Source: Myxococcales bacterium
Lineage (GTDB): Bacteria > Myxococcota_A > Polyangia > Polyangiales > DASUME01
Direction: 5' to 3'
Length of the DNA stretch: 64,000 nucleotides
Assembly (NCBI GenBank): GCA_047601445.1
Contig: JASGJH010000001.1
Coordinates: 4,992,001-5,056,000, forward strand
Made by a program: the position numbers and the translations under genes. The notes below the pieces were generated by a model that was not told the DNA's origin, ran no database searches, and was given only the letters and a program-made list of their open reading frames with translations. Shown piece by piece: positions 37,088 to 50,166 of this stretch; position 1 is the stretch's first letter, and each line of letters begins with the position of its first letter.

Positions 37088-37744
37088 ATGAGCAACGCGC
37101 GGACGTCCCATCCCTCGAGCGGCCAGACGTTGGCAGCCGCCCACGAACACGACAGCTCCCTCCAGAAGCAGCTCGGCAAGGCCATGTTGGTTGCCTCCGG
37201 TTGGACCGCGTCGGGCCCGCCCCCGGCGGAAAAGCGCTACGTCTTGTTGGCCGCGCCCCACACGTCCAATTGGGACTTGCCCGTGATGCTCGCCCTCACG
37301 ATGAGCTTCGGCCTGACGGTGCGCTGGATGGGCAAGCACTCGCTGTTCAAGCCACCCTTCGGCGGATTCATGAAGCTCCTGGGCGGCCTGCCCATCGAGC
37401 GCCACAAGCAGAAAGGCGTGGTCGAAGCGGTGGCCGAAGAGTACCGCAACGCCGAGGAGCTCATCATCGCCATTCCGCCCGAGGCCACGCGCAGCCGCGC
37501 TCCGTACTGGCGCTCGGGCTTCTATCACATCGCACGTGCTGCCCAGGTCCCGATCGCGCTCGGGTTTCTCGACTACGAAAAGCAAATCGGCGGCATCGGG
37601 CCCCTGATCCAGCCCAGCGGAGACATCCACGCCGACATGGAGAAGATCCGCACGTTCTACGCGCCGATGCAGGGCAAGTTCGCGGAAAACTTCGCGGTCC
37701 CACGGCTGCGCGAGGAGGACGAGTCCGTCCCCAGCAGAGGCTAG
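37088..37744 (+). CDS. 1-acyl-sn-glycerol-3-phosphate/lysophospholipid acyltransferase
   Basis: PHTSNWD (HxxxxD), PEATR, WRSGFYHIA. Confidence 0.92.
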   Translation: MSNARTSHPSSGQTLAAAHEHDSSLQKQLGKAMLVASGWTASGPPPAEKRYVLLAAPHTSNWDLPVMLALTMSFGLTVRWMGKHSLFKPPFGGFMKLLGGLPIERHKQKGVVEAVAEEYRNAEELIIAIPPEATRSRAPYWRSGFYHIARAAQVPIALGFLDYEKQIGGIGPLIQPSGDIHADMEKIRTFYAPMQGKFAENFAVPRLREEDESVPSRG

Positions 37745-37899
37745 GGGTGTCCCTAATTCCGGCGCGAGTCAGGGCGCGAATTTCCGTCGCAGCGCGAGCG
37801 CGCCCGCAGGCTCGACCTGAAGGTCGGGCCGAGGACGAAGGCTGCGATGCGGCGGAAAGGCGCGATGCTGGCGTGCGCCGGAATGAGGGACACCCCTAG
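37741..37899. mobile_element. MITE-like element with 25-bp terminal inverted repeats ending in CTAG
   Basis: CTAGGGGTGTCCCTAATTCCGGCGC ... GCGCCGGAATGAGGGACACCCCTAG (24/25 complementary). No credible coding capacity. Confidence 0.7.
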
Positions 37900-39397: not shown

Positions 39398-41228
39398 ACA
39401 CGGAAGTTTGCTCGATGCCCTGATTTTCCTGGGCGGCGCGGTGGTCTTCGTGCCGCTGGCGAGTCGGCTTGGACTCGGCTCGGTGCTCGGCTACCTGCTC
39501 GCGGGCTGTGCCATTGGACCGCACCTCCTCGGACTCGTGCGCAACGTGGACTCCATCATGCATTTCGCCGAGCTCGGTGTGGTGCTGATGCTGTTCGTGA
39601 TCGGACTCGAGCTCGACCCCAAGCGCCTGTGGGGCATGCGGCGCCTGGTGTTCGGCGGCGGCGCCCTGCAGATGCTCTCGTGCAGCGTGGCCATTGGCGC
39701 CGCAGGCATGGCCGTAGGGCTCGCCTGGCAACCCGCGCTGATCGCTGGGCTCGCGCTGGCGCTGTCGTCCACCGCCATCGCGGTGCAGACCATGAACGAG
39801 CGCAACCTGCTCAACTCTCCGCTCGGGCGCGCGTCCTTCGGTGTGCTGCTGTTCCAGGACCTCGCTGCGATCCCGATCATGAGCGTGGTACCGCTGCTCT
39901 CCACGGCGGCGGACGCAAAGGCCGGCGGAGACCTGAGCTCGGCGCTCAAGGGGATCGCAGCCCTGGCCGTCACCGTGGGCGTGGGCCGCTTCCTCACGCG
40001 ACCGCTCCTGCAAGTGGTGGCGCGCACCGGGCTACGCGAAGTGTTCACCTCGGTGGCGCTCTTGATCGTGTTGGGCGTGGCACAGCTGATGACGATGGCG
40101 GGCCTCTCAATGGGCCTGGGCGCGTTCTTGGCGGGTGTGCTCCTGGCAGGGTCGGAGTTTCGCCACGCCCTCGAGGCCGACATCGAGCCCTTCAAGGGTC
40201 TCTTGATGGGCCTCTTCTTCATGTCGGTGGGCATGGCCATCGACTTCGGACTACTCGCGAGCCACCCCCTGTTCGTGCTGGCTTTGGTGGCCGGATATCA
40301 GGTGATCAAAGCCGGCGTGCTCGCGCTGATCGCGCCTCGTCTGAGCGTGGCCAAGTCCCAGAGCGGCCTGTTCGCTGCACTCTTGGCCCAGGGGGGCGAG
40401 TTCGCCTTCGTGGTGCTCGGTGTGGCGAAAGAGGCCAAGGCCCTGCCGGGCAACTGGGGCGGCCTGCTGACACTCACGGTGGCGCTCTCGATGGCGCTGA
40501 CACCACTTTTGCTGTGGATCCAGGGCAAGGCCGACGACCGACGCGCCTCCGCCAATGCGCGCCAGGACGACGTGATCGAACACGACGGCTCCCAGGTGAT
40601 CATCGCGGGCTTCGGCCGCTTCGGACAGATCGTGGGCCGCATGTTGTTCGCGAGCGGCATCCGGGCCACCGTGCTCGACCACGATCCCGATCAGATCGAG
40701 GTCTTGCGCAGGTTCGGCTTTCGCATCTTTTACGGCGACGCCACCCGCGTGGACCTCTTGCACACGGCGGGCGCGGCCAAGGCCAAGCTCCTGATCAATG
40801 CCATCGACGGCATCGACGACAGCCTGCAGCTGGTGGACCGCGTGAAGGAGCACTTCCCGCAGCTGACGATCGTGTCCCGGGCCCGCAACGTGTCCCACTA
40901 TTTCGAACTGCGCTCCCGCGGCGTGAACGTGGTGGAGCGCGAGACCTTCGAAGCCGCCATCACCATGGGACAGAAGGCGCTCATCAATCTCGGCGTGGCG
41001 CCCTACGAAGCCCACGAGCGCGCCGATCGCTTTCGCCGCCACAACGTGCGCGCGCTGGAGGCGGTATTGCCCTACCTCGACGACGAAGCCCGCCGCCTGT
41101 CCATGGCGCGCGCCGCGCGCGAAGAGCTCGAGAAGCAGTTCGAGCGTGACATGGCGGCGCTCAATCGCATCGGGAGTGCGGCTTGGCAGGCGGATCTCGA
41201 GGGGGCTGACGAGGCTCGCGCGGAGTGA
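39390..41228 (+). CDS. kefC: Glutathione-regulated K+ efflux antiporter (CPA2 + KTN)
   Basis: LGSVLGYL, LLFQDLA, HALEADIEPFKGLL, IAGFGRFGQ, FYGDATR, ERETFE. Confidence 0.93.
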   Translation: MAEHGSLLDALIFLGGAVVFVPLASRLGLGSVLGYLLAGCAIGPHLLGLVRNVDSIMHFAELGVVLMLFVIGLELDPKRLWGMRRLVFGGGALQMLSCSVAIGAAGMAVGLAWQPALIAGLALALSSTAIAVQTMNERNLLNSPLGRASFGVLLFQDLAAIPIMSVVPLLSTAADAKAGGDLSSALKGIAALAVTVGVGRFLTRPLLQVVARTGLREVFTSVALLIVLGVAQLMTMAGLSMGLGAFLAGVLLAGSEFRHALEADIEPFKGLLMGLFFMSVGMAIDFGLLASHPLFVLALVAGYQVIKAGVLALIAPRLSVAKSQSGLFAALLAQGGEFAFVVLGVAKEAKALPGNWGGLLTLTVALSMALTPLLLWIQGKADDRRASANARQDDVIEHDGSQVIIAGFGRFGQIVGRMLFASGIRATVLDHDPDQIEVLRRFGFRIFYGDATRVDLLHTAGAAKAKLLINAIDGIDDSLQLVDRVKEHFPQLTIVSRARNVSHYFELRSRGVNVVERETFEAAITMGQKALINLGVAPYEAHERADRFRRHNVRALEAVLPYLDDEARRLSMARAAREELEKQFERDMAALNRIGSAAWQADLEGADEARAE

Positions 41229-41235
41229 CTCACGA

Positions 41236-41427
41236 CGCGGGTGGCTGTTCGCGACGGGCGAGAGGGCTGCCCTGCCCGCTCGTCGCGCTGCATCTCGCTG
41301 CCCCGCCTGAGCTCGGTGTTCTCTTCCCACGTGAGCTTGGTGTTCTCTCGGTTCACCCCGCTCTCTCGTGATCCCTCTGCCTCTCGCGAGCTTGGTGTTC
41401 CTTCCCACGTAAGCCCGTGTTCTCTCG
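41236..41427 (-). repeat. Internally deleted copy of the composite repeat (arm plus degenerate 27-bp units)
   Basis: CGCGGGTGGCTG..GCCCTGCCCGCTCGTCGCGCTG matches the left end of the copy at 44000, followed by several GAGCTTGGTGTTCTCT-like units. Confidence 0.7.
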
Positions 41428-41438
41428 CTCCACTGAAG

Positions 41439-41492
41439 TGGCACGCTCCGTGCTGCGATGTGCCGTTCGAAACACCAGCTTGCACAAGCTGG
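41439..41492 (+). promoter_or_regulatory. Candidate sigma54 promoter plus palindromic operator, duplicated upstream of the paralog (~42710-42762)
   Basis: TGGCACGCTCCGTGCT has GG-N10-GC spacing. CCAGCTTG-CA-CAAGCTGG is a perfect inverted repeat at 41475-92. Both are kept in the second copy. Confidence 0.45.
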
Positions 41493-41518
41493 CACAAGTC
41501 CCTTCCCGGAGGCCCGGT

Positions 41519-42637
41519 GTGTCCTCGAGATGCTCTACATTCTTGGCAGTGAGCCTGTTGGGCAGCGTCGCGCTCGGCCTCACGCCGACAAGTGCGCACG
41601 CCTGTTCCTGCCCCTTCGGACCGTATCTTTCCTGGCCTCTCGCCACGGCGACGAACGTCGCGCTGGAGCCAAGTCTAATCATCGCGGCCCCACTGCTCGA
41701 CCCAGTCCAGGTGACGTTGGTGGCCGCGGACGGCACCGAAGTCGCCGTCGAGGCGACCGGGAATCCGCGGCTCGACCCTGCTGACGCGTGCGCCGGCTCC
41801 TACTGGTTCTTTCGTCCCGCAACGCGTCTTGCGGCAAACACGACCTATTCTGTTCGCATCGACGGTGCTCCCGATTTTGCTTACACGCCGAGCTTCACCA
41901 CGGGTGAGGTCATCGCAGAGCCTGCCCCAGAAGCCCCTCCCTCCGTTCGCTATCGCCGCTTGCTGGCGCCCGCGGGATGCGATCCAAACACTGCCTCATA
42001 CTGCATGGACTACTTCGCGCTCACTGCGGAAGGAGCCGCGACCCAGAGTCGCGCTCTGACATTCCTGAAGGTCAGCGGGAAGGACCCTTCAACAGCGTCT
42101 GTGGTGTACGAGCTTGGCTTTCCGCCTCTGGAGCCACCGTCGTTCAATTTGCACAAGGTTTCGCCCGCGGATGCATGCCTCGACTACGCGTGGATCGATC
42201 GCAGCGGTGCAACGCTGCAAACAGGCACGCTTTGCGATCCAGAAAAATGCGTGCGCGCCAGCTACACGACCTGGATGGAGATGGAGTTCTGCTTTTCGTA
42301 CTACATCGACCCAACCATCTGGGAAGGCCTTCCCCCAAACAGCTGCGAAGACCCGCCCGTCCTTCCGACCGCCGAGGTGCCCGATGCTGGGATCGTCGAC
42401 GTAGAAGGGCCCGGTGATGGGACCATCGAAATGGAGGGCACGCCCGACGCGGGGCCCGACGGCAGGCCAACGACCAACGAATCGAAGGGGCTTTGCAGTG
42501 TGCAGTTCGCGGCCCCAAGTACTTCGCTGCTCAGTGGGGGATGGCTCGCGTTGCTGGCTGCCGCTCTCTGGCGGACTCGGACACGGGTGACCGCTCATGG
42601 TCGAAGCGGGGGACGCCCCAGCCGCTCGTCGCACTGA
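41519..42637 (+). CDS. Secreted Ig-like, Cys-rich surface protein with MYXO-CTERM-like tail (paralog 1)
   Basis: GGAGG plus GTG 41519, signal ending AHA-CSC, RPATRLAANTTYSVRI, tail GLCSV..WLALLAAALWRTR. Confidence 0.8.
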   Translation: MSSRCSTFLAVSLLGSVALGLTPTSAHACSCPFGPYLSWPLATATNVALEPSLIIAAPLLDPVQVTLVAADGTEVAVEATGNPRLDPADACAGSYWFFRPATRLAANTTYSVRIDGAPDFAYTPSFTTGEVIAEPAPEAPPSVRYRRLLAPAGCDPNTASYCMDYFALTAEGAATQSRALTFLKVSGKDPSTASVVYELGFPPLEPPSFNLHKVSPADACLDYAWIDRSGATLQTGTLCDPEKCVRASYTTWMEMEFCFSYYIDPTIWEGLPPNSCEDPPVLPTAEVPDAGIVDVEGPGDGTIEMEGTPDAGPDGRPTTNESKGLCSVQFAAPSTSLLSGGWLALLAAALWRTRTRVTAHGRSGGRPSRSSH

Positions 42638-42797
42638 TTGTCCGCATCTCGGTTGTCCGTGCTTCTTGATCTCTTCGTCCGCGCGAGCTTGATAGGCTGT
42701 GGCTCGCGGCGGCACGCCTCGTGCTGCAACGTGTCGTTCGAACACCAGCTTGCACAATCTGGCACAAACTCCTTCTATTCCCTCTTGGAGGCCCGGT

Positions 42798-43949
42798 ATG
42801 TCCACGAGATACGCAGCGTTGTTGACCGCGGGCTTGCTGAGCGTTGCCGCGCTCGGCTTCACCCCGACGAAGGCCCACGCCTGTTCATGCCTCCCAGGGC
42901 CCTCTCTTGCCTGGCCTTTCTCCATGGCGACGGACGTCGCGCTAGAGCCAAACCTCGTCATCGCAGTGGCGGATCTTCAACCGCTCAAAGTCACGTTGGT
43001 GGCCGCGGACGGCACGGAGATCGCCGCCGAACCGACGGAGAATCCGCGGCTCGACCATGTTCAGTCTTGCGTGAACGCCTTCTGGTTCTTTCGTCCCGCG
43101 ACGCGTCTTGCTGCGAACACGACCTATTCTGTTCGCATCGACGTAGCTGGCGATAGCGATCCTTCGTCGAGCTTCACCACCGGTGAGGTGATCGCAGAGC
43201 TTACTCCGACGGCTCTGCCTTCGCTCCGCTATCACCGTTTGTTGGCGCCGGAGGGCTGTAGCCCCGAGGACCCGTACTGCTCGGACTTCATCGGGCTCGA
43301 AGAAGCCGATGTGCCAAGTGGCGCTCCCACATTCCTGAAGATCAGCGGGAAAGCACCCTCCACGGACCCGGTGGTGTACGAGCTGGCCGTACGAGAGTTC
43401 AACTACGCTCCCCCATCTCTCATCGATCTACAGAAGGTTTCGCCCGCTGACGCATGCCTCGACTACACGTGGATCGACCGTAGCGGTGCGACACTGCAGA
43501 CAGGCACGCTGTGCGATCCGAAAAAGTGTGCCCGCGCGAGCCCGACGACGTTGCTGGAGACACGGTCTTCTTGCTCGCTTTACTACCTCGACATGGCCGC
43601 CTGGGACGCCCTACCCGACAACAACTGCGACGACCCACCTGTGCTTCCGACACGCTGGGCTTCCGATGCCGGGATCGGCGACGCAGAAGCGCCCGATGCT
43701 TCTCACGTCGTCGACGCGAAGGTCACGCCAACGCGTGACGCCGGACCCGACAGGAGTCCAACGGCGAGCGAGTCGACGGGGATGTGTAGCGTTCGGGTCG
43801 CAGCACCGAGGTCTTCGATGTTCGGTGGAGGATGGCTTGCTTTGCTGGCTGCGGTGCTCTGGCGGGCTCGGGCTCGGACGCGGGTGGCTGCTGGTGGTCG
43901 GAGCGGGGGACGCCCTGGCCGCTCGTCGCGCTGCTGCGGTGCGCGTTAG
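42798..43949 (+). CDS. Secreted Ig-like, Cys-rich surface protein with MYXO-CTERM-like tail (paralog 2)
   Basis: GGAGG plus ATG 42798. Shares blocks such as KVSPADACLDY.WIDRSGATLQTGTLCDP with paralog 1. Confidence 0.8.
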   Translation: MSTRYAALLTAGLLSVAALGFTPTKAHACSCLPGPSLAWPFSMATDVALEPNLVIAVADLQPLKVTLVAADGTEIAAEPTENPRLDHVQSCVNAFWFFRPATRLAANTTYSVRIDVAGDSDPSSSFTTGEVIAELTPTALPSLRYHRLLAPEGCSPEDPYCSDFIGLEEADVPSGAPTFLKISGKAPSTDPVVYELAVREFNYAPPSLIDLQKVSPADACLDYTWIDRSGATLQTGTLCDPKKCARASPTTLLETRSSCSLYYLDMAAWDALPDNNCDDPPVLPTRWASDAGIGDAEAPDASHVVDAKVTPTRDAGPDRSPTASESTGMCSVRVAAPRSSMFGGGWLALLAAVLWRARARTRVAAGGRSGGRPGRSSRCCGAR

Positions 43950-44112
43950 GTCGTACGTCATGGGATGCTTGGTGGCCGGTTGGCCGCATGCGGCTCGGAC
44001 GCGGGTGGCTGCTGGTGGTCGGAGCGGGGGACGCCCTGGCCGCTCGTCGCGCTGCTGCGGTGCGCGTTAGGTCGTACGTCATGGGATGCTTGGTGGCCGG
44101 TTGGCCGCATGC
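43871..44112. repeat. Exact 121-bp tandem duplication of the left part of repeat copy A
   Basis: 43871-43991 equals 43992-44112 by direct reading. Confidence 0.9.
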
Positions 44113-44250
44113 GCGCCGAGGAACGGCGCGCGGGCTGTTCTTACGGGGTGAGGCGTCTGCACGGTTGTACGTCTGTTCTTCGACTCGGGCGGGGGCGCTC
44201 CAATGCGCGGCCAGGACGTCCCCCGCTCCGACCACCAGCAGCCACCCGCG
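44000..44250 (-). repeat. Composite repeat copy A: 44-bp inverted arms around a ~167-nt conserved core
   Basis: Arms 44000-43 and 44207-50 are complementary with one mismatch. The core is the reverse complement of 45322-45489. Confidence 0.9.
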
Positions 44251-44255
44251 CTCTC

Positions 44256-44451
44256 GTGTTCTCTTGGTCCCACGTGAGCTTGGTGTTCTCTTGGTCCCAC
44301 GTGAGCTTGGTGTTCTCTCGGGCCCACGTGAACCTGGTGTTCTCTTGGTCCCACGTGAGCTTGGTGTTCTCTCGGGCCCGCGTGAGCCTGGTGTTCTCTC
44401 GGGTTCGCGTGAGCCTGGTGTTCTCTCGGGTTCGCGAACTCGGCGTTCCCT
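44256..44451. repeat. 27-bp minisatellite, about 7 copies
   Basis: Unit GTGTTCTCTYGGKCCCRCGTGAGCYTG starting at 44256, 44283, 44310, 44337, 44364, 44391, 44418. No spacers. Confidence 0.93.
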
Positions 44452-44484
44452 TCGAATGATTTCAATGCCTACTATGGTCCCGCC

Positions 44485-45165
44485 GTGACTGGTTCGCGGA
44501 AGGTTGTACTTGCTCGTTGTGGGGAGCTCGATAGCTTCAGCGGGATCACGCGGTCCAGAGAGGTGGTTGGCGTGTCTGGCACCCACGCAGCGATTCAAGG
44601 ATATGGACCTGGGTCCGACACGCTGCTCGTGTTCACCAAACGCCCACAGCCCGTCGTCCCGCAGGTCTTGGCAGGCATCATCTTCGTCTCTTTTGTCGCG
44701 GTGTTCGGCGGCTGGCGGGGCATGCTCATGCTGCTGCTTGGCGCGCCATTCTTCGTGCTTGCGTTGTTCCTGGAGCGTCTGGCTGGCTACGTCTGCGTCG
44801 TTGCCCTCGAACGACAAACTCTGGTGCTGGTCGGGTATCGCTTCGGACGGCCATACTCGGTCCGATTAGCGCTTACCGAGATCGCGCGCGCCGTCCGCGG
44901 ACGCGAGTACGGCTGTGCGCATCGGTTGCGTCTGGAGATGCGTCATGGACAAACGTATTGGCTCACGTTCATGACGGGAGGCCGAAATCCCGGCCCATAC
45001 TTCGACCTGCTCGTGAACCATACGAATCTTCGATTTCCAGAAGGATCCGCCATCCCGGAGACGGTCCGAATGTTTTCACGTGCGCTTTCGGACTTGGGAG
45101 TCGAGGTGTCCGAAGACCCATTACCGACCTATCCCCGCGTCCGCTACTGGCCCACCAAGGACTGA
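44485..45165 (+). CDS. Hypothetical membrane protein (two TM helices plus soluble domain)
   Basis: 226-aa ORF filling the gap between repeat copies A and B. Visibly more A/T-ending codons than neighbours. Confidence 0.6.
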   Translation: MTGSRKVVLARCGELDSFSGITRSREVVGVSGTHAAIQGYGPGSDTLLVFTKRPQPVVPQVLAGIIFVSFVAVFGGWRGMLMLLLGAPFFVLALFLERLAGYVCVVALERQTLVLVGYRFGRPYSVRLALTEIARAVRGREYGCAHRLRLEMRHGQTYWLTFMTGGRNPGPYFDLLVNHTNLRFPEGSAIPETVRMFSRALSDLGVEVSEDPLPTYPRVRYWPTKD

Positions 45166-45217
45166 GCTTCGACTGACGTTGGGTCAGCGCGGCTGGAGGA
45201 AGCACCCTGAGATAGGA

Positions 45218-45532
45218 CACACCAAGCGCACTCGAGAGAGAACACGAGAGAGCGGCGTGGACTAGAGAACACGAGCGAGCGGGTGGCTGCTCGTGGCGGT
45301 GGGCGCGGGTTCGCCCTGGCCGCGCATTGGAGCGCCCCCGCCCGAGTCGAAGAACAGACGTACAACGCTTCCCAGATCCCCACCCCAGAAGTACAGCCCG
45401 CGCGCCGTTCCTCGGCGCGCATGCGGCCAACCGGCCCCCAAGCACTCCATGACGTACGACCTAACGCGCACCGCATCAGCGCGACGAGCGGACAGGGCGG
45501 CACCGTGCCCGCCGCCGCGAGCAGCCACCCGC
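45218..45532 (+). repeat. Composite repeat copy B: degenerate 27-bp units plus fold-back 45279-45532
   Basis: AGAGAACACGAG units, then ~45-bp arms around the core GCGCATTGGAGCGCC...CAGCGCGACGAGC. Confidence 0.88.
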
Positions 45533-45553
45533 GTCGCGACGAGCGGCCACCCG

Positions 45554-47431
45554 CTATTTAGCGGAGAAGAATGCCCCGAGCGTCTCCAGAAGCTTCGGCC
45601 CCTCGAGCCACACCATGATCGCCACGCCCATCAACGATTCGCCCGCGATCAAACCCGATGAGACCGGGATCGTATAGGCCTGATCGACCTGCGGCCGGGT
45701 GCGCCCGATCAGCCACGCGGCCAAGGCACCGATGAACATGGAGATGGAGTTGAACGCAGGGATCACGCCGGCGATGCCGAGGCCGGTCGCAGACGGCAGC
45801 CACTTGCGGTACTTGGCGGGCAAGAGCTCTTCGGCCACGGCGAGGCCGATCCCGATGGCCGCTCCGAACACGACCGCGATCAGCGCGCCCTTGGGCAGCG
45901 CCTCGAGTCCCTTGGCGAGCATCTCGGCGACGCCGGCCCATACCTTGGCTGCCGGCGCGGGGAGTTCTTCGGAGCCGAGCTTTTCGGGCGTGGCGATCAG
46001 GGTGTACACGGGGACGCACATCAAGGTGCCCGCGAGTACGCCGAACAACTGCGCGATGGTCTGTTTGCGCGGGCTGCCACCGAGCAAGTAGCCGGACTTC
46101 AGGTCGGTGAGTAGGTCGGCCGCGTGAGCGGAAGCGGCGGACGTGATCGACGCGGTCATCAGGTTGGTGGTGATGTTGGCTGGCGCGATCACGCCGTAGG
46201 CGAGCTGGGTGATCTTGCCCAGGGCTCCGATGGGCGTGACATCGGTCTCTCCCGTAGCGCGCGCCGCGACGATGGACAGCAAGAACGTGGCGAGCACGGC
46301 AAGCACGCCCATCCACCAGGTGATCTGGAAGAACCAGTGACCGAGCATCACGCACGCAAGGCCCGAGAGGAGAGTGCCCCACAGCGTCCAGGACACGGGC
46401 ACTTCGATGTCCGCGAGCGGATCTTGCGTGGCCTTGTCGGCGTCCGCGCGGAACATGTCGCCCACGCCCGAGAGCGCGCGGCCGATGGTGCGCCAGCGGA
46501 AGCACAGCGACGTGATGCTGGAGGAGATCATCATCGCGGTAGCGGGCCAGAGCGTCCAGGAGACGATGCTGCGATAGCCGGGCTTGACGATGCCCGCTGA
46601 GACCACCATCTCGCCGGCCACACCGAAGAAGAGCACGGCCCCCAAAAGCAGCGAGATCCCCACGCGGATGCCCATGATGGCGCCTGCGGCCACCATGATG
46701 CTCGACCCCTCGAAGCCGATCGTGAGGTCGTCCAGCCAGCGCTTGGCGCGTTCCCCCCAAAACAGCGGAAAGGCGCTCGGAATGGCGTGCTTTCCCATGG
46801 CGGGTGCGTCACGCAGAAAGGCGAGCACCGCGCCGAGCACCGACGCAGCGATCAGCGAGCGCGCCTTTTGCACGGCCTCGCGACCCACCGTGTGCATCGA
46901 GCGCAGTGTCTCCGCGGTGGCGATGCCGGAAGGGAAAGGCAGCTTGTCGTGATTGATGAGCTGACGCTTGAGCGGCACCGCCAGGAACACGCCGAGCACC
47001 GAAGTGGCGAACAGCCACGGCATGGTCTCCCACCAGGTGAGCACGCGGCCGGTGGTCATGTAGAGCGCTGGCAGGGCCGAGGCCAAACCGGAGGTAGCCA
47101 TGTAGCCGGCGGCGCTGGCCGCACTCGACATGGTGTTGTTCTCGAGGATGCTGAAGGGATCCTTGCGATAGGCCGGGACGATGGCCTCGAGCGCCTTGAA
47201 CACCGAGAAGGCGATGATGCAGGCGGTGATGGTCACCCCGAGTCCCCAACCCGTCTTGAGTCCGACGTAGAGGTTGGAGATGGACATCACGGCGCCGATG
47301 GCCATGCCGCTCACCAGGGAGCGCACCGAGAGCTGGCGCACCGTGTCCCCGCGGTAGACCTCGGCCCGCCACGCGCGGTCGGAAGCAAAGGGATCGTGGT
47401 CGGCTGCCGCGGCGGGGTCGGGTCGCTCCAT
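45554..47431 (-). CDS. OPT family oligopeptide transporter
   Basis: NLYVGLKTGW, LENN, LPFPSG, GETDVTP, DLKSGYLLG, SGLIAGES. Start at ATG 47431. Confidence 0.92.
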   Translation of the reverse strand: MERPDPAAAADHDPFASDRAWRAEVYRGDTVRQLSVRSLVSGMAIGAVMSISNLYVGLKTGWGLGVTITACIIAFSVFKALEAIVPAYRKDPFSILENNTMSSAASAAGYMATSGLASALPALYMTTGRVLTWWETMPWLFATSVLGVFLAVPLKRQLINHDKLPFPSGIATAETLRSMHTVGREAVQKARSLIAASVLGAVLAFLRDAPAMGKHAIPSAFPLFWGERAKRWLDDLTIGFEGSSIMVAAGAIMGIRVGISLLLGAVLFFGVAGEMVVSAGIVKPGYRSIVSWTLWPATAMMISSSITSLCFRWRTIGRALSGVGDMFRADADKATQDPLADIEVPVSWTLWGTLLSGLACVMLGHWFFQITWWMGVLAVLATFLLSIVAARATGETDVTPIGALGKITQLAYGVIAPANITTNLMTASITSAASAHAADLLTDLKSGYLLGGSPRKQTIAQLFGVLAGTLMCVPVYTLIATPEKLGSEELPAPAAKVWAGVAEMLAKGLEALPKGALIAVVFGAAIGIGLAVAEELLPAKYRKWLPSATGLGIAGVIPAFNSISMFIGALAAWLIGRTRPQVDQAYTIPVSSGLIAGESLMGVAIMVWLEGPKLLETLGAFFSAK

Positions 47432-47559
47432 GTGCCCGTCAGTATAAGCAGGGGAAGTTCGCTTGGTGCGCCGATTCACGAATCGCTTTCACCCGGACGA
47501 GCGTTGGACCGTTGCTGCGCGCTCAGGGCCCGAGCGTGTATGAAAGAGGAAGGTACGCG

Positions 47560-48246
47560 ATGGTCAGCCTCTTAAAACCCAGCTTGCTCCTGCTCCTGCT
47601 TGGGGTCGGAGCTCTCTCTCTGAGCGCCCGGGCACAAGCCCAATTGGCCCCTAGTTCGACGGTCCCTGCGGTGGAAGCCACGCCCGTGGCGACACCCGTG
47701 GCAGAGCCCGCGTCGGCCCCTGCGCTTCAGCCCCCGCCCGCGCCGGGCCCACCCATGGCGCTCGACACCGGCTGCCGACCCGGCGACTGCAACGTGGAAG
47801 CACGAGGCACGCCGCCCGCCGCATTCGAAACCACCGCCCCCGGACCCGCCGGTTCCCGCCCACCCCCTGGCACCCTGCTGCGCATGGACGGAACGACCTA
47901 CGAGGCACCCCCGGCGAAGAAGCCCAGACTCCCCAAGCTATGGGCGCCCATCACGCTCACCTGCATCGGCGCCACCTTTCTGGTCCCCGGCGTCACCATC
48001 CTGACCATCGCTCTCATCGACCGCAGCACCGGCGGCGACGGCGATCCCGAAGACACCGCCGAATACACCACCGTGCAAGGCGCCGGCATGCTCGTCCTCT
48101 CCGGTGCCGCCCTCACCTTCGGCATCATTTGGCTCAAGAGACGCAAGGCGGAACGCCGACGCATGCGCGAAGAAATGGCAGCAGGCCTCGCGGGCTTCTC
48201 GTGGGGCATCATGGGAGCAGGGGCTCGGGTGACGCTGAGGATGTGA
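47560..48246 (+). CDS. Hypothetical protein: signal peptide, Pro-rich linker, two TM segments
   Basis: MVSLLKPSLLLLLLGVGALSLSARAQA and hydrophobic C-terminal segments. Confidence 0.65.
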   Translation: MVSLLKPSLLLLLLGVGALSLSARAQAQLAPSSTVPAVEATPVATPVAEPASAPALQPPPAPGPPMALDTGCRPGDCNVEARGTPPAAFETTAPGPAGSRPPPGTLLRMDGTTYEAPPAKKPRLPKLWAPITLTCIGATFLVPGVTILTIALIDRSTGGDGDPEDTAEYTTVQGAGMLVLSGAALTFGIIWLKRRKAERRRMREEMAAGLAGFSWGIMGAGARVTLRM

Positions 48247-48291
48247 CGGCGCGCCCATGCGAACTGTCCGCAGCACGGCCCTCTCGATCCC

Positions 48292-49023
48292 CTACGGCCA
48301 CAACGAGACTCCTACCAGCAAGCTCAGCGTAACCATGCGCTCGTAGCTCTTGGGTGGAGCATGCTGAGTCCCCACCGAGGTCTCGGACTTGAGGAAGTCG
48401 TAGGCGAACACGGCGCTCAGGTCGATGCTACCGCCGCGCAGCACGAAGAAGTGCCCCACCAAGCCGAGCAGCGGCCCCAGGGCACGTGTCTTGGTCTCGC
48501 TCTGGATGGGCAGCTCGGGTCCGTTGTCGCGTAACCAGGGCTTGGCGTGATAGCGCCTGAAATCCAGGCCTCCCAGCGCACTCAGCACCACGCGTGAGTC
48601 GGGTGTGATCGGGAACTCACAAGCCGGACGCAGCATGAAGGCGCGCTCGGGTGACTCATCGGTAGAGTCCTGCACTGCACCCTGGGAGAAATCGTAGCGG
48701 TGGCGTCGCGCTTCCACGGCGAACTGCAGCGAGGGAACGACGTGGCGGTGCACGACATAGCCAGCACCGAAGGCGACATACCCCGGGATGCCTCCCGAGA
48801 GCCGCCCGCCCGTGGGCCCGAACCCAATCTCTCGCTCCACCGTGGTCTGCGGTTCCGAAAGATTCTCGTAGCGAGATTCCGCGCGTTGATAGTCGAGCAG
48901 GACGGTGTTCACCGAGAACACGAAGTGCCCCTGCTCCACCTGCGCCACACCAAAGGCCGGCCACAGCATGCCCATCAAGCAGAGCGACCACGGCAGCAAC
49001 CCACTCAACCAACGACGGCGCAT
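48292..49023 (-). CDS. Probable outer-membrane beta-barrel protein
   Basis: Signal peptide, amphipathic strands, terminal LLVGVSLWP. Confidence 0.6.
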   Translation of the reverse strand: MRRRWLSGLLPWSLCLMGMLWPAFGVAQVEQGHFVFSVNTVLLDYQRAESRYENLSEPQTTVEREIGFGPTGGRLSGGIPGYVAFGAGYVVHRHVVPSLQFAVEARRHRYDFSQGAVQDSTDESPERAFMLRPACEFPITPDSRVVLSALGGLDFRRYHAKPWLRDNGPELPIQSETKTRALGPLLGLVGHFFVLRGGSIDLSAVFAYDFLKSETSVGTQHAPPKSYERMVTLSLLVGVSLWP

Positions 49024-49133
49024 CGCGCTGCTTCTCACGCCAAGCCCGGCATGTCGACCCCGAAGCCCCGAGCTCACCCGGAGAAGGAGTTGCGTTGAGA
49101 CCCCGCGGGTCAGGGGGCGTCGAGCCTACCCGG

Positions 49134-49499
49134 GCACGATGCACGCTCGAGATCATGCGAGGCCCAGTGAACGCTCGAGCACCATGCACGCTCGAGATCA
49201 CGCGAGCCCCAGTGAACGCCCGAGCCAAACCCGGGCACCATGCACGCTCGAGCACACCCCGTGGCGCGGCTGGAGGGGGGCTGGGTCAGGTCACGGCGCA
49301 TTGGAGCGCCCCCCGCTCGGATCGAAGAACAGACGTACGACACCCCCCAGATCCCCCGCCCCACGAGTGCAGCCCGCGCGCCGTCCTCGGCGCGCATGCG
49401 GCCAACCGGTCCCCAAGCACCTCAAGAAGTACGACCGAGGCGCGAAGCAGCGCGACGAGCCATGACCTGACCCCGCCCCCCTCCAGCCGCGCCACCGGG
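49134..49499 (+). repeat. Composite repeat copy C: 45-bp tandem units plus fold-back 49261-49495
   Basis: 45-bp units at 49134 and 49179 plus a partial third. 37-bp arms (two mismatches) of different sequence around the same core, 49296-49460. Confidence 0.88.
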
Positions 49500-49551
49500 A
49501 GTGGGAGAGCTCTGGATACGTGTTCAGGTTGGTGGTACCGTCCGCCGAACC

Positions 49552-50166
49552 ATGATCGGCCGACTTACCGGTATCATTGTGGATCAGACCCTGGACGGCG
49601 CCTGCGTGGTCGACGTCTCGGGGGTGGGTTACGAGGTCTTCGTGCCGCTCGGCGCCCTCGGGCGCCTGGCGCGCGCCACCGAGCGCGTGACGCTGCACGT
49701 CCATACCCAAATGCGCGAGGACGCGCTCACGCTGTACGGCTTCCCGACGCTGGAGGACCGTACCGCCTTTCGCACCCTGCTGGGGGTCAACGGCGTGGGG
49801 CCCAAGCTGGCTCTCGGGATCATGGGCAGTCTCACCGCCAGCGAGCTGGCCGACGCCCTCAATCGCGGCGACAAGGCGCGCTTCAAGGGCATCAGCGGCG
49901 TAGGCCCCAAGATCGTCGAGCGTCTGGTGCTCGAGCTCAAGGACAAGCTGCACTTCGTGGGGGGCGCCATGAGCGCGCCGATGCCCGCGCCCAAGAGCGC
50001 GCCCCAGAGCGCGTTCACGGGCATCCTGGCCACCGTGCACGGCGCGTTGGTGCAGATGGGGTTCAAGCCCTTCGAGGCCGAGACGGCGCTGCAGAAGATT
50101 CAGCCGAAGGCCGAAGGCAAGGCCGCCGAAGAGCTCTTGCGCGAGGCGCTAGCGTCCCTCGCCTGA
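49552..50166 (+). CDS. ruvA: Holliday junction branch migration protein RuvA
   Basis: MIGRLTG, GVGYEV, REDALTLYGF, GVGPKLAL, LELKDK. Confidence 0.96.
   Translation: MIGRLTGIIVDQTLDGACVVDVSGVGYEVFVPLGALGRLARATERVTLHVHTQMREDALTLYGFPTLEDRTAFRTLLGVNGVGPKLALGIMGSLTASELADALNRGDKARFKGISGVGPKIVERLVLELKDKLHFVGGAMSAPMPAPKSAPQSAFTGILATVHGALVQMGFKPFEAETALQKIQPKAEGKAAEELLREALASLA

Follow-up and report, generated by a model that had tools for sequence, protein, structure and literature searches.

Paired fold-back repeats with a REPIN-like layout in the genome of a Myxococcales bacterium

The stretch analysed here (64,000 nt of contig JASGJH010000001.1 from a Myxococcales bacterium; hereafter the window, to which unprefixed coordinates refer) carries three full copies, A, B and C, of a non-coding fold-back element that recurs elsewhere in the same genome. 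A preliminary description had proposed these copies, a core shared by them and an inverted repeat closing each core, and all of this is confirmed by the present analysis (Table 1). The motifs quoted for the core are invariant in the alignment, starting at 44208 (-), 45322 (+) and 49296 (+), and the closing repeats measure 44 bp in A, 45 bp in B and 45–52 bp in C, with complementarities of 98%, 84% and 87%, respectively. The minisatellites described beside them were recovered as 6.5 units of 27 nt at 44256-44430 and 2.2 units of 45 nt at 49129-49225, and the proposed non-coding character agrees with the indels found among the copies and the lack of a common reading frame. Compared to 200 dinucleotide shuffles each, B and C folded with z-scores of -8.2 and -8.7, and none of the 200 shuffles gave an equally good fold. 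This strong folding is almost entirely due to the closing stem; the core of B without its arms folded weakly (z = -2.4). The family is real and REPIN-like in layout, and no description of it was found in the literature searched (chiefly open-access papers, the compared ones in their main text).

A and B diverge from an interval that holds a 226-aa open reading frame (ORF). This ORF matched no Pfam family, and among 200 other genomes of the order it had no clear homologue, the one match covering 41 aa (E 8.5e-4). On the outer side of A, a tandem duplicate of its 3' half overlaps the end of ORF 42699-43949, and on the outer side of B a short partial tail repeat (45532-45553) terminates at the stop codon of a convergent gene (45554). 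The gene facing the 3' end of C is presumably ruvA-like; this name, like those of argJ, lysC, TetR and the sterol reductase, was taken from reading the protein, without a family scan. Beyond A, B and C, the window carries two further 3'-end remnants, the first of which belongs to an A-like half abutting a stop codon at 41228. Both remnants and copy A each lie behind an accessory gene, and two of these genes are paralogues of about 60% identity. These tandem paralogues (ORFs 41417-42637 and 42699-43949) have Cys-rich bodies, no Pfam family and a hydrophobic C-terminus ending in Arg, which resembles a myxobacterial sorting signal. Both frames extend into element tails, and within the genus distant tandem homologues occur in genome G009 only.

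Table 1 Features of the element in the window, and loci of other repeats in the host genome (prefix G000:C1)
Feature	Position	Strand	Details
Internally deleted A-like half	41229..41430	-	leader remnant, 3' arm and tail (3'-end remnant 41229-41291)
3' arm and tail remnant	42584..42636	-	overlaps end of ORF 41417-42637, between two paralogous accessory genes
Tandem duplicate of A 3' half (121 nt)	43871..43991	-	3' part of core, 3' arm and tail; repeat spans 43871-44113
Left half A, type I	44000..44250	-	5' arm 44207-44250; core 44042-44208 with central hairpin; 3' arm 44000-44043
Leader of A	44251..44448	-	27-nt minisatellite, GAGAACAC in every unit
Accessory (cargo) ORF, 226 aa	44485..45165	+	between leaders of A and B
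Leader of B	45230..45278	+	two GAGAACAC units, 27 nt apart
Right half B, type I	45279..45553	+	45-bp stem; core 45322-45489; full copy 45279-45532
Leader of C	49129..49252	+	CTCGAG-rich 45-nt tandem repeat
Single half C, type I	49253..49503	+	core 49296-49460; 3' end faces gene start
Second-family loci (L162-L168 among others)	G000:C1 9222800-9223450, 4708887-4709230, 4756037-4757178, 6006050-6006393, 8307582-8307774
Simple-repeat inverted arrays	G000:C1 3563480-3564140, 6310911-6311301, 6696431-6696832, 6835608-6836077, 9378791-9379261

The host genome (G000; 9.5 Mb, 66% GC, a single contig) was surveyed for full cores with iterated profile searches and a sequence-independent inverted-repeat scan. 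The element is dispersed, as had been anticipated, and not confined to the window locus: 24 full cores were found, comprising six of type I (A–F), nine of type II and nine of type III, and the three types align with common invariant positions. Each half spans 227–262 nt and is preceded by a leader that contains a GAGAACAC-like motif; from 5' to 3', it consists of a 5' arm rich in G, the core, the 3' arm and a short tail. The closing stem measures 32–65 bp. The core (160–180 nt) is rich in C and A (C 38%, T 11%) and contains a central hairpin of 6–9 bp flanked on both sides by conserved unpaired motifs. This hairpin occurs in three sequence forms, is deleted in F and P2, and has pyrimidine-rich or GNA triloops, never GNRA or UUCG; such loops fit DNA better than RNA hairpins. 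A GCGAC-like motif marks the stem base ahead of the 3' arm, and the tail often terminates in GAG.

Eighteen of the 24 full copies form nine divergent pairs, with the 5' arms inward and the 3' ends outward; of the others, two have a deleted partner and four are single. A pair comprises a left half, a CTCGAG-rich spacer and a right half over some 700–900 bp; at separate loci it recurs with unchanged arms, and its outer ends are sharp. Eight spacers are degenerate minisatellites of 179–337 nt, in which CTCGAG is 11-fold and GAGAAC 15-fold enriched relative to the genome; the A–B spacer instead holds the 226-aa ORF, and a pair in the related genome G004 has a 1.2-kb insert. Pairs G, H and I, at three loci, have left and right arm families in common (87–100% over 30 nt) and identical outer end positions, with no target duplication visible when the flanks were read by eye. 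Because these pairs recur with common arms and outer ends, the dispersing unit is likely the pair rather than the single copy. Insertion of cores into pre-existing palindromes was ruled out, as no empty arm–arm palindromes exist for 23 arms; one core-deleted remnant lies at 5.11 Mb. At 5.68 Mb (G000:C1:5683842-5684480), a 212-aa gene with a weak, below-cut-off match to PycTM (a Pycsar effector; E 7e-4) lies between two left halves that are 97% identical, as from single-crossover integration.

Within a copy the arms pair at 91, 97 and 96% of positions in types I, II and III, and between copies they are 64, 73 and 67% alike, compared to 82, 85 and 83% for the cores (23 of 24 copies; K, which lacks its outer 5' arm, was excluded). 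Of the initial view that the arms are complementary within each copy and private to it, the first part stands and the second does not: A and B have arms that match at 73%, and arms of the same family are found at more than one locus. Among isolated stem mismatches in 30 copies from four genomes, G·T outnumbers A·C by 26 to 4 (37 to 6 when all mismatches are counted), and folding of one strand is therefore constrained. Whichever chromosome strand carries the element, and on either side of oriC (placed at 5.77 Mb by GC skew and dnaA), the bias stays with the strand of the element itself; this strand is antisense to the convergent neighbour. Core transitions show no such bias (42 per 247 sites and 24 per 160), and strand-biased deamination is not supported by them as the source of the G·T excess.

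In an alignment of 18 sequences, eight of ten inner pairs of the closing stem are altered on both sides and none of 500 shuffles reached the covariation score; the copies are related by descent, so that such P values overstate independence. Moreover, across 12 selected pairs, 38 substitutions and several indels recur in mirror image in the opposite arm, compared to 34 differences without such a counterpart. Pair Q has the arm of its right half in the outermost left tail, and its right 3' arm is chimeric, combining both. The chimeric arms and mirrored indels suggest that, in addition, arms serve as templates for one another in cis. Hence, the selection on stem pairing inferred at the outset holds as a constraint on one strand and not as purely compensatory covariation. 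In seven halves the 3' arm and tail are duplicated two to four times, and five of these restart at the stem base.

Such traces would also be left by near-neutral replication errors, in which template switching builds and perfects inverted repeats and local recombination spreads them without a dedicated enzyme. The mirrored changes, the chimeric arms, the tail duplications restarting at the stem base, the regional clustering described below and the failure to find an enzyme all suit such a process. Strand-symmetric copying, however, would not yield a 26:4 ratio of G·T to A·C on the element's strand, and it leaves unexplained both the unpaired motifs conserved across three subfamilies and four genomes and the outer ends common to unlinked loci. 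We consider this explanation unlikely.

The one-strand constraint likewise bears on whether the halves encode structured RNAs. Each would be transcribed from the common spacer towards the outside, with its ends paired into a long stem and protein bound to the conserved single-stranded motifs, and the many copies would be homogenised by gene conversion. The folded strand is that of an outward transcript, and a G·U bias would fit RNA equally. Inside arm families the arms are mostly better conserved than the cores (39/39 positions against 87% in the pair of genome G007), the central hairpin is retained in its three forms, some loci are common to several species, and the copies cluster around oriC, whereas a second repeat family (see below) is spread genome-wide. 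Yet a sigma-70-like promoter was not found in the A–B region, core folding is weak outside the one hairpin, itself lost from F and P2, and internal deletions, tail duplications and gene-overlapping remnants are many. Copies were not found in six of nine other members of the genus or in the other genomes searched. Rfam covariance models gave no match at E ≤ 1 in window positions 43500-50000 and none at E ≤ 0.5 in 12 loci, bearing out the earlier statement that no known family was recognised. An RNA gene is the main alternative and is regarded as doubtful.

With regard to genomic location, the end of a convergent gene lies opposite 23 of the 32 outer ends, mostly within 50 nt, compared to about 34% for gaps of at least 250 nt, and seven of eleven pair loci lie between convergent genes. 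Copy A and the 42584 remnant were assigned to gene ends by hand, the automatic gene calling having missed those ORFs. In a post hoc comparison, the stop codon is directly followed by CTC, the complement of the element's terminal GAG, at six of 19 ends with a clean gene call and at 128 of 7414 genes genome-wide. This placement could indicate a role in the neighbouring mRNA, with the stem acting behind the stop codon as a 3' stabiliser, a terminator or a ribosome-stalling structure. The mRNA of the neighbour carries the reverse complement, though, where the tolerated G·T pairs become A·C mismatches, and 9/32 ends face gene starts. A function of this kind is very unlikely as the primary one; it could be a secondary co-option, which would not account for the constraint.

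No 5'-only fragments of types I and II were found, and 3' fragments are common. Together with a long terminal inverted repeat around a core of about 165 nt, this polarity is reminiscent of a retron-like msr-msd or other reverse-transcribed RNA with the arms as a1/a2 repeats, and retrotransposed msDNA-like repeats have reportedly been seen in Nannocystis exedens. Against this stand the lack of a reverse transcriptase (RT) gene near any copy, a central hairpin of only 6–9 bp, unlike a long msd stem, and the recurrence of whole pairs, spacer included, at separate loci. Several remnants retain the leader or part of the 5' arm, so that central deletion suffices to account for the 3' bias, and polarity as proof of reverse transcription was ruled out on this ground. 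A retron origin is extremely unlikely.

Within the genus, three of nine other genomes hold real copies, namely G004 (six matches), G007 (four) and G008 (two), with new arms each time. At the site behind argJ, a type II pair is found in G000, a pair resembling type I in G004 and no element in G007; the site behind the sterol-reductase-like gene holds type III in G000 and another subtype in G004; and that behind the TetR gene holds the second repeat family in G000 and type II in G007. Three other occupied or nearby sites of relatives are empty in G000. The window region is not syntenic in G007, and no empty site is readable for A/B or C. Such occupancy would be expected of mobile elements with hot spots, or of old insertions that underwent conversion where they lay. 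Outside the genus, a sequence-only model found copies in none of 141 genomes of the order, and the one match among 120 genomes of the class is a chance hit in a coding region; with 17 candidates scored per genome under strict, sequence-based filters, diverged relatives could escape both searches. Viral contigs gave no match to three patterns, phage records gave none, and plasmids gave a single 49-nt match (E 7e-3), judged to be chance. Pattern scans returned 28 metagenomic loci, none scored as real, and 44 loci in a genome collection, of which three were real and already counted. Weak matches in G006 and G008 (L173, L181, L185) and at 7.13 Mb in G000 were dropped as coding sequence. In G008, a diverged copy (L078:1340-1760, G008:C642) sits between two segments coding for low-density lipoprotein (LDL)-receptor-A repeats, the second apparently a gene fragment. 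In G004, fragments resembling restriction-system genes by reading, with no Pfam match, lie in or beside elements (L029:2886-3359 and L030:146-520).

An enzyme encoded elsewhere, IS110-like, RAYT or RT, had been suggested as the mobiliser, and none of these was traced to the element. IS110/IS1111 DEDD recombinases gave no PF02371 match in G000, with the control matched in 6/14 and PF01548 left unsearched. The RAYT model NF047646 stayed below cut-off in G000. The sole Y1 gene there, an unlinked IS200-like TnpA in a low-GC island, is not flanked by the repeat, and neither are those of G008 and G009, the relatives being incomplete assemblies; no Y1 match was obtained in G004 and G007. G000 has no match to the HUH-like genes of G008 and G009, which have other repeats on their flanks. 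For IS91/ISCR Y2 transposases, PF04986 had no match in G000, and the positive control was equally silent. Two RTs exist in G000, neither near a copy, and the 13 RT loci of five relatives gave no profile match of the element beyond one weak score (E 0.27). Among 16 neighbouring ORFs in relatives (of 71 listed), a Pfam scan found no transposase.

Three HUH-Y1-like genes of 330–380 aa (L200, G008:C421; L201, G009:C697; L202, G008:C43) have their own short flanking repeats; G000 lacks them, yet inverted repeats of a similar GGGACGGTT type occur there. At window positions 37741-37899, an inverted repeat of 25 bp that ends in GGGGTGTCCCT and is related to one at 2.54 Mb of G000 may be a remnant of an HUH-associated terminal-repeat family. 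At 4.49 Mb of G000 (L023:1216-2763), an intact RT of 515 aa in an island of lower GC follows a 540-nt non-coding stretch and may be a defence-associated RT. The other RT (1.21 Mb; L024:1126-2150) is 5'-truncated and group II intron-like, and it ends next to a dif-like site near the skew maximum.

Taking these data together, we give roughly even credence to the interpretation that the family is a giant REPIN-like non-autonomous element, the halves of which would be recognised as folded single strands by a putative enzyme. Spread probably proceeds via a single-stranded intermediate. A trans-acting nuclease, HUH-like by analogy with REPINs, would recognise the folded strand and the repeated core motifs and would join the ends near the terminal GAG, with insertions surviving chiefly in gaps behind genes. 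Fold-back copying at replication would re-match the arms and duplicate the 3' tail, deletions between inverted copies would leave the 3' remnants, and accessory genes would accumulate within or beside the spacer.

Several findings weigh against transposition of this kind. The family searches brought up no mobiliser in the host genome or its relatives, and a GTAG or CGTC foot is absent from the stem end. The 14 loci with full copies all fall between 3.80 and 6.49 Mb, in a 2.7-Mb part of the 9.5-Mb genome that surrounds oriC; with nine merged clusters, P is 5e-5 for proximity to oriC and 3.5e-4 for clustering at any position. Random transposition does not predict this; local hopping and a dosage benefit are both possible causes. 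There is one clean empty site for a G000 locus, too diverged for its junction to be read. Elements at the same gene ends in species with 76–96% protein identity could equally reflect retention in place. Finally, no two dispersed copies are identical, type I cores being at most 92% alike and only the adjacent I0/I1 reaching 98%, so that there has been no recent burst.

Non-autonomous hairpin DNA that a nuclease of the host maintains has its model in REPINs, the replication mechanism of which is unsettled. The units described here are about ten times larger and lack a RAYT; the constraint on one strand is measurable in them, and their sequence preserves the traces of copying between arms. If mobile, they point to an unrecognised single-strand mobiliser or an RNA route, and to a way for accessory and defence-like genes into myxobacterial chromosomes. 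If they are not, they caution that covarying closing stems need not signal a new RNA gene. A broader proposal, tentative and somewhat doubtful, is that they represent one family of an undescribed class of fold-back elements that are strand-specific, keep a conserved core and renew their own arms. Such elements would use an enzyme outside the RAYT, IS91, IS110 and RT groups, land immediately behind stop codons and capture accessory genes between their two halves.

The second repeat family of G000 is unrelated in sequence and has the same layout, with variable arms, a C/A-rich core of about 70 nt containing a hairpin, CGAC at the stem base, divergent pairs and CTCGAG-rich spacers; 22 profile hits are distributed genome-wide. 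At L168 (G000:C1:1653500-1657500), insertion sequence (IS) elements, IS3-like by ORF reading, interrupt both halves of one pair of this second family at about the same position of the core hairpin, which suggests that this hairpin is an IS target. Separately, inverted arrays of 6–7-nt simple repeats flank short inserts at five sites. One of them encloses a 112-aa ORF whose product we presume to be a four-helix-bundle protein.

Comparison with described systems places the family nearest to REPINs. The elements do not fit a DDE-type miniature inverted-repeat transposable element, as left and right halves have unlike outer ends and the flanks, read by eye, lack a duplication. IS110/IS1111 bridge-RNA elements and non-autonomous derivatives of IS200/IS605 have no visible target duplication either and are recognised as structured single strands; here, no IS110 recombinase was found in the genome and the two ends fold on opposite strands instead of one. 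With retron msr-msd regions, the elements have in common a structured core closed by a terminal inverted repeat and a myxobacterial host, and they differ by the lack of an adjacent RT and a long msd hairpin and by their multi-copy pairs.

ERIC/IRU and YPAL repeats are nearest in size, being dispersed intergenic fold-backs of 127–169 nt with tens of copies. In contrast to their single long stem-loop, the present element has a large conserved unpaired core, a replaceable arm clamp and divergent pairs (PMC2267715). Opposed dimers, complementary stem changes, G·T pairs and positions downstream of genes or between convergent ORFs are shared with GTAG/CGTC REPs and BIMEs (PMC3733652, PMC6006769), from which the element differs by a roughly tenfold larger size and the absence of a tag tetranucleotide; Sorangium, Myxococcus and Anaeromyxobacter do not appear in the main text of PMC3733652.

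REPs are defined as palindromes of 20–65 nt whose stem foot carries the tetranucleotide GTAG/GTGG or CGTC (PMC6006769, PMC3733652), and REPINs are inverted REP doublets associated with RAYT/TnpA-REP (PMC3116915, PMC3337134). The unit of about 250 nt with its own 32–65-bp closing stem exceeds this size, no GTAG/CGTC foot precedes the arms, no RAYT accompanies them, and there are about 24 copies instead of hundreds; minisatellite spacers, cargo genes and arm exchange in cis are further differences. As the size, tag and RAYT features are missing, the family is not filed as a member of REPs or REPINs. Still, the preliminary description went too far in calling its pattern the opposite of that of REPINs, since the inverted pair has two conserved ends and a variable spacer, just as REPINs do (PMC3337134). 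Both consist of related units inverted around a spacer of low identity, both are extragenic, and both include singlets that look like remnants, tandem arrays and nesting with other repeats (PMC3116915, PMC3337134). The doublet and location features of REPINs are thus present in this family, in the divergent pairing of 18/24 full copies and in the 23/32 ends that face the end of a gene.

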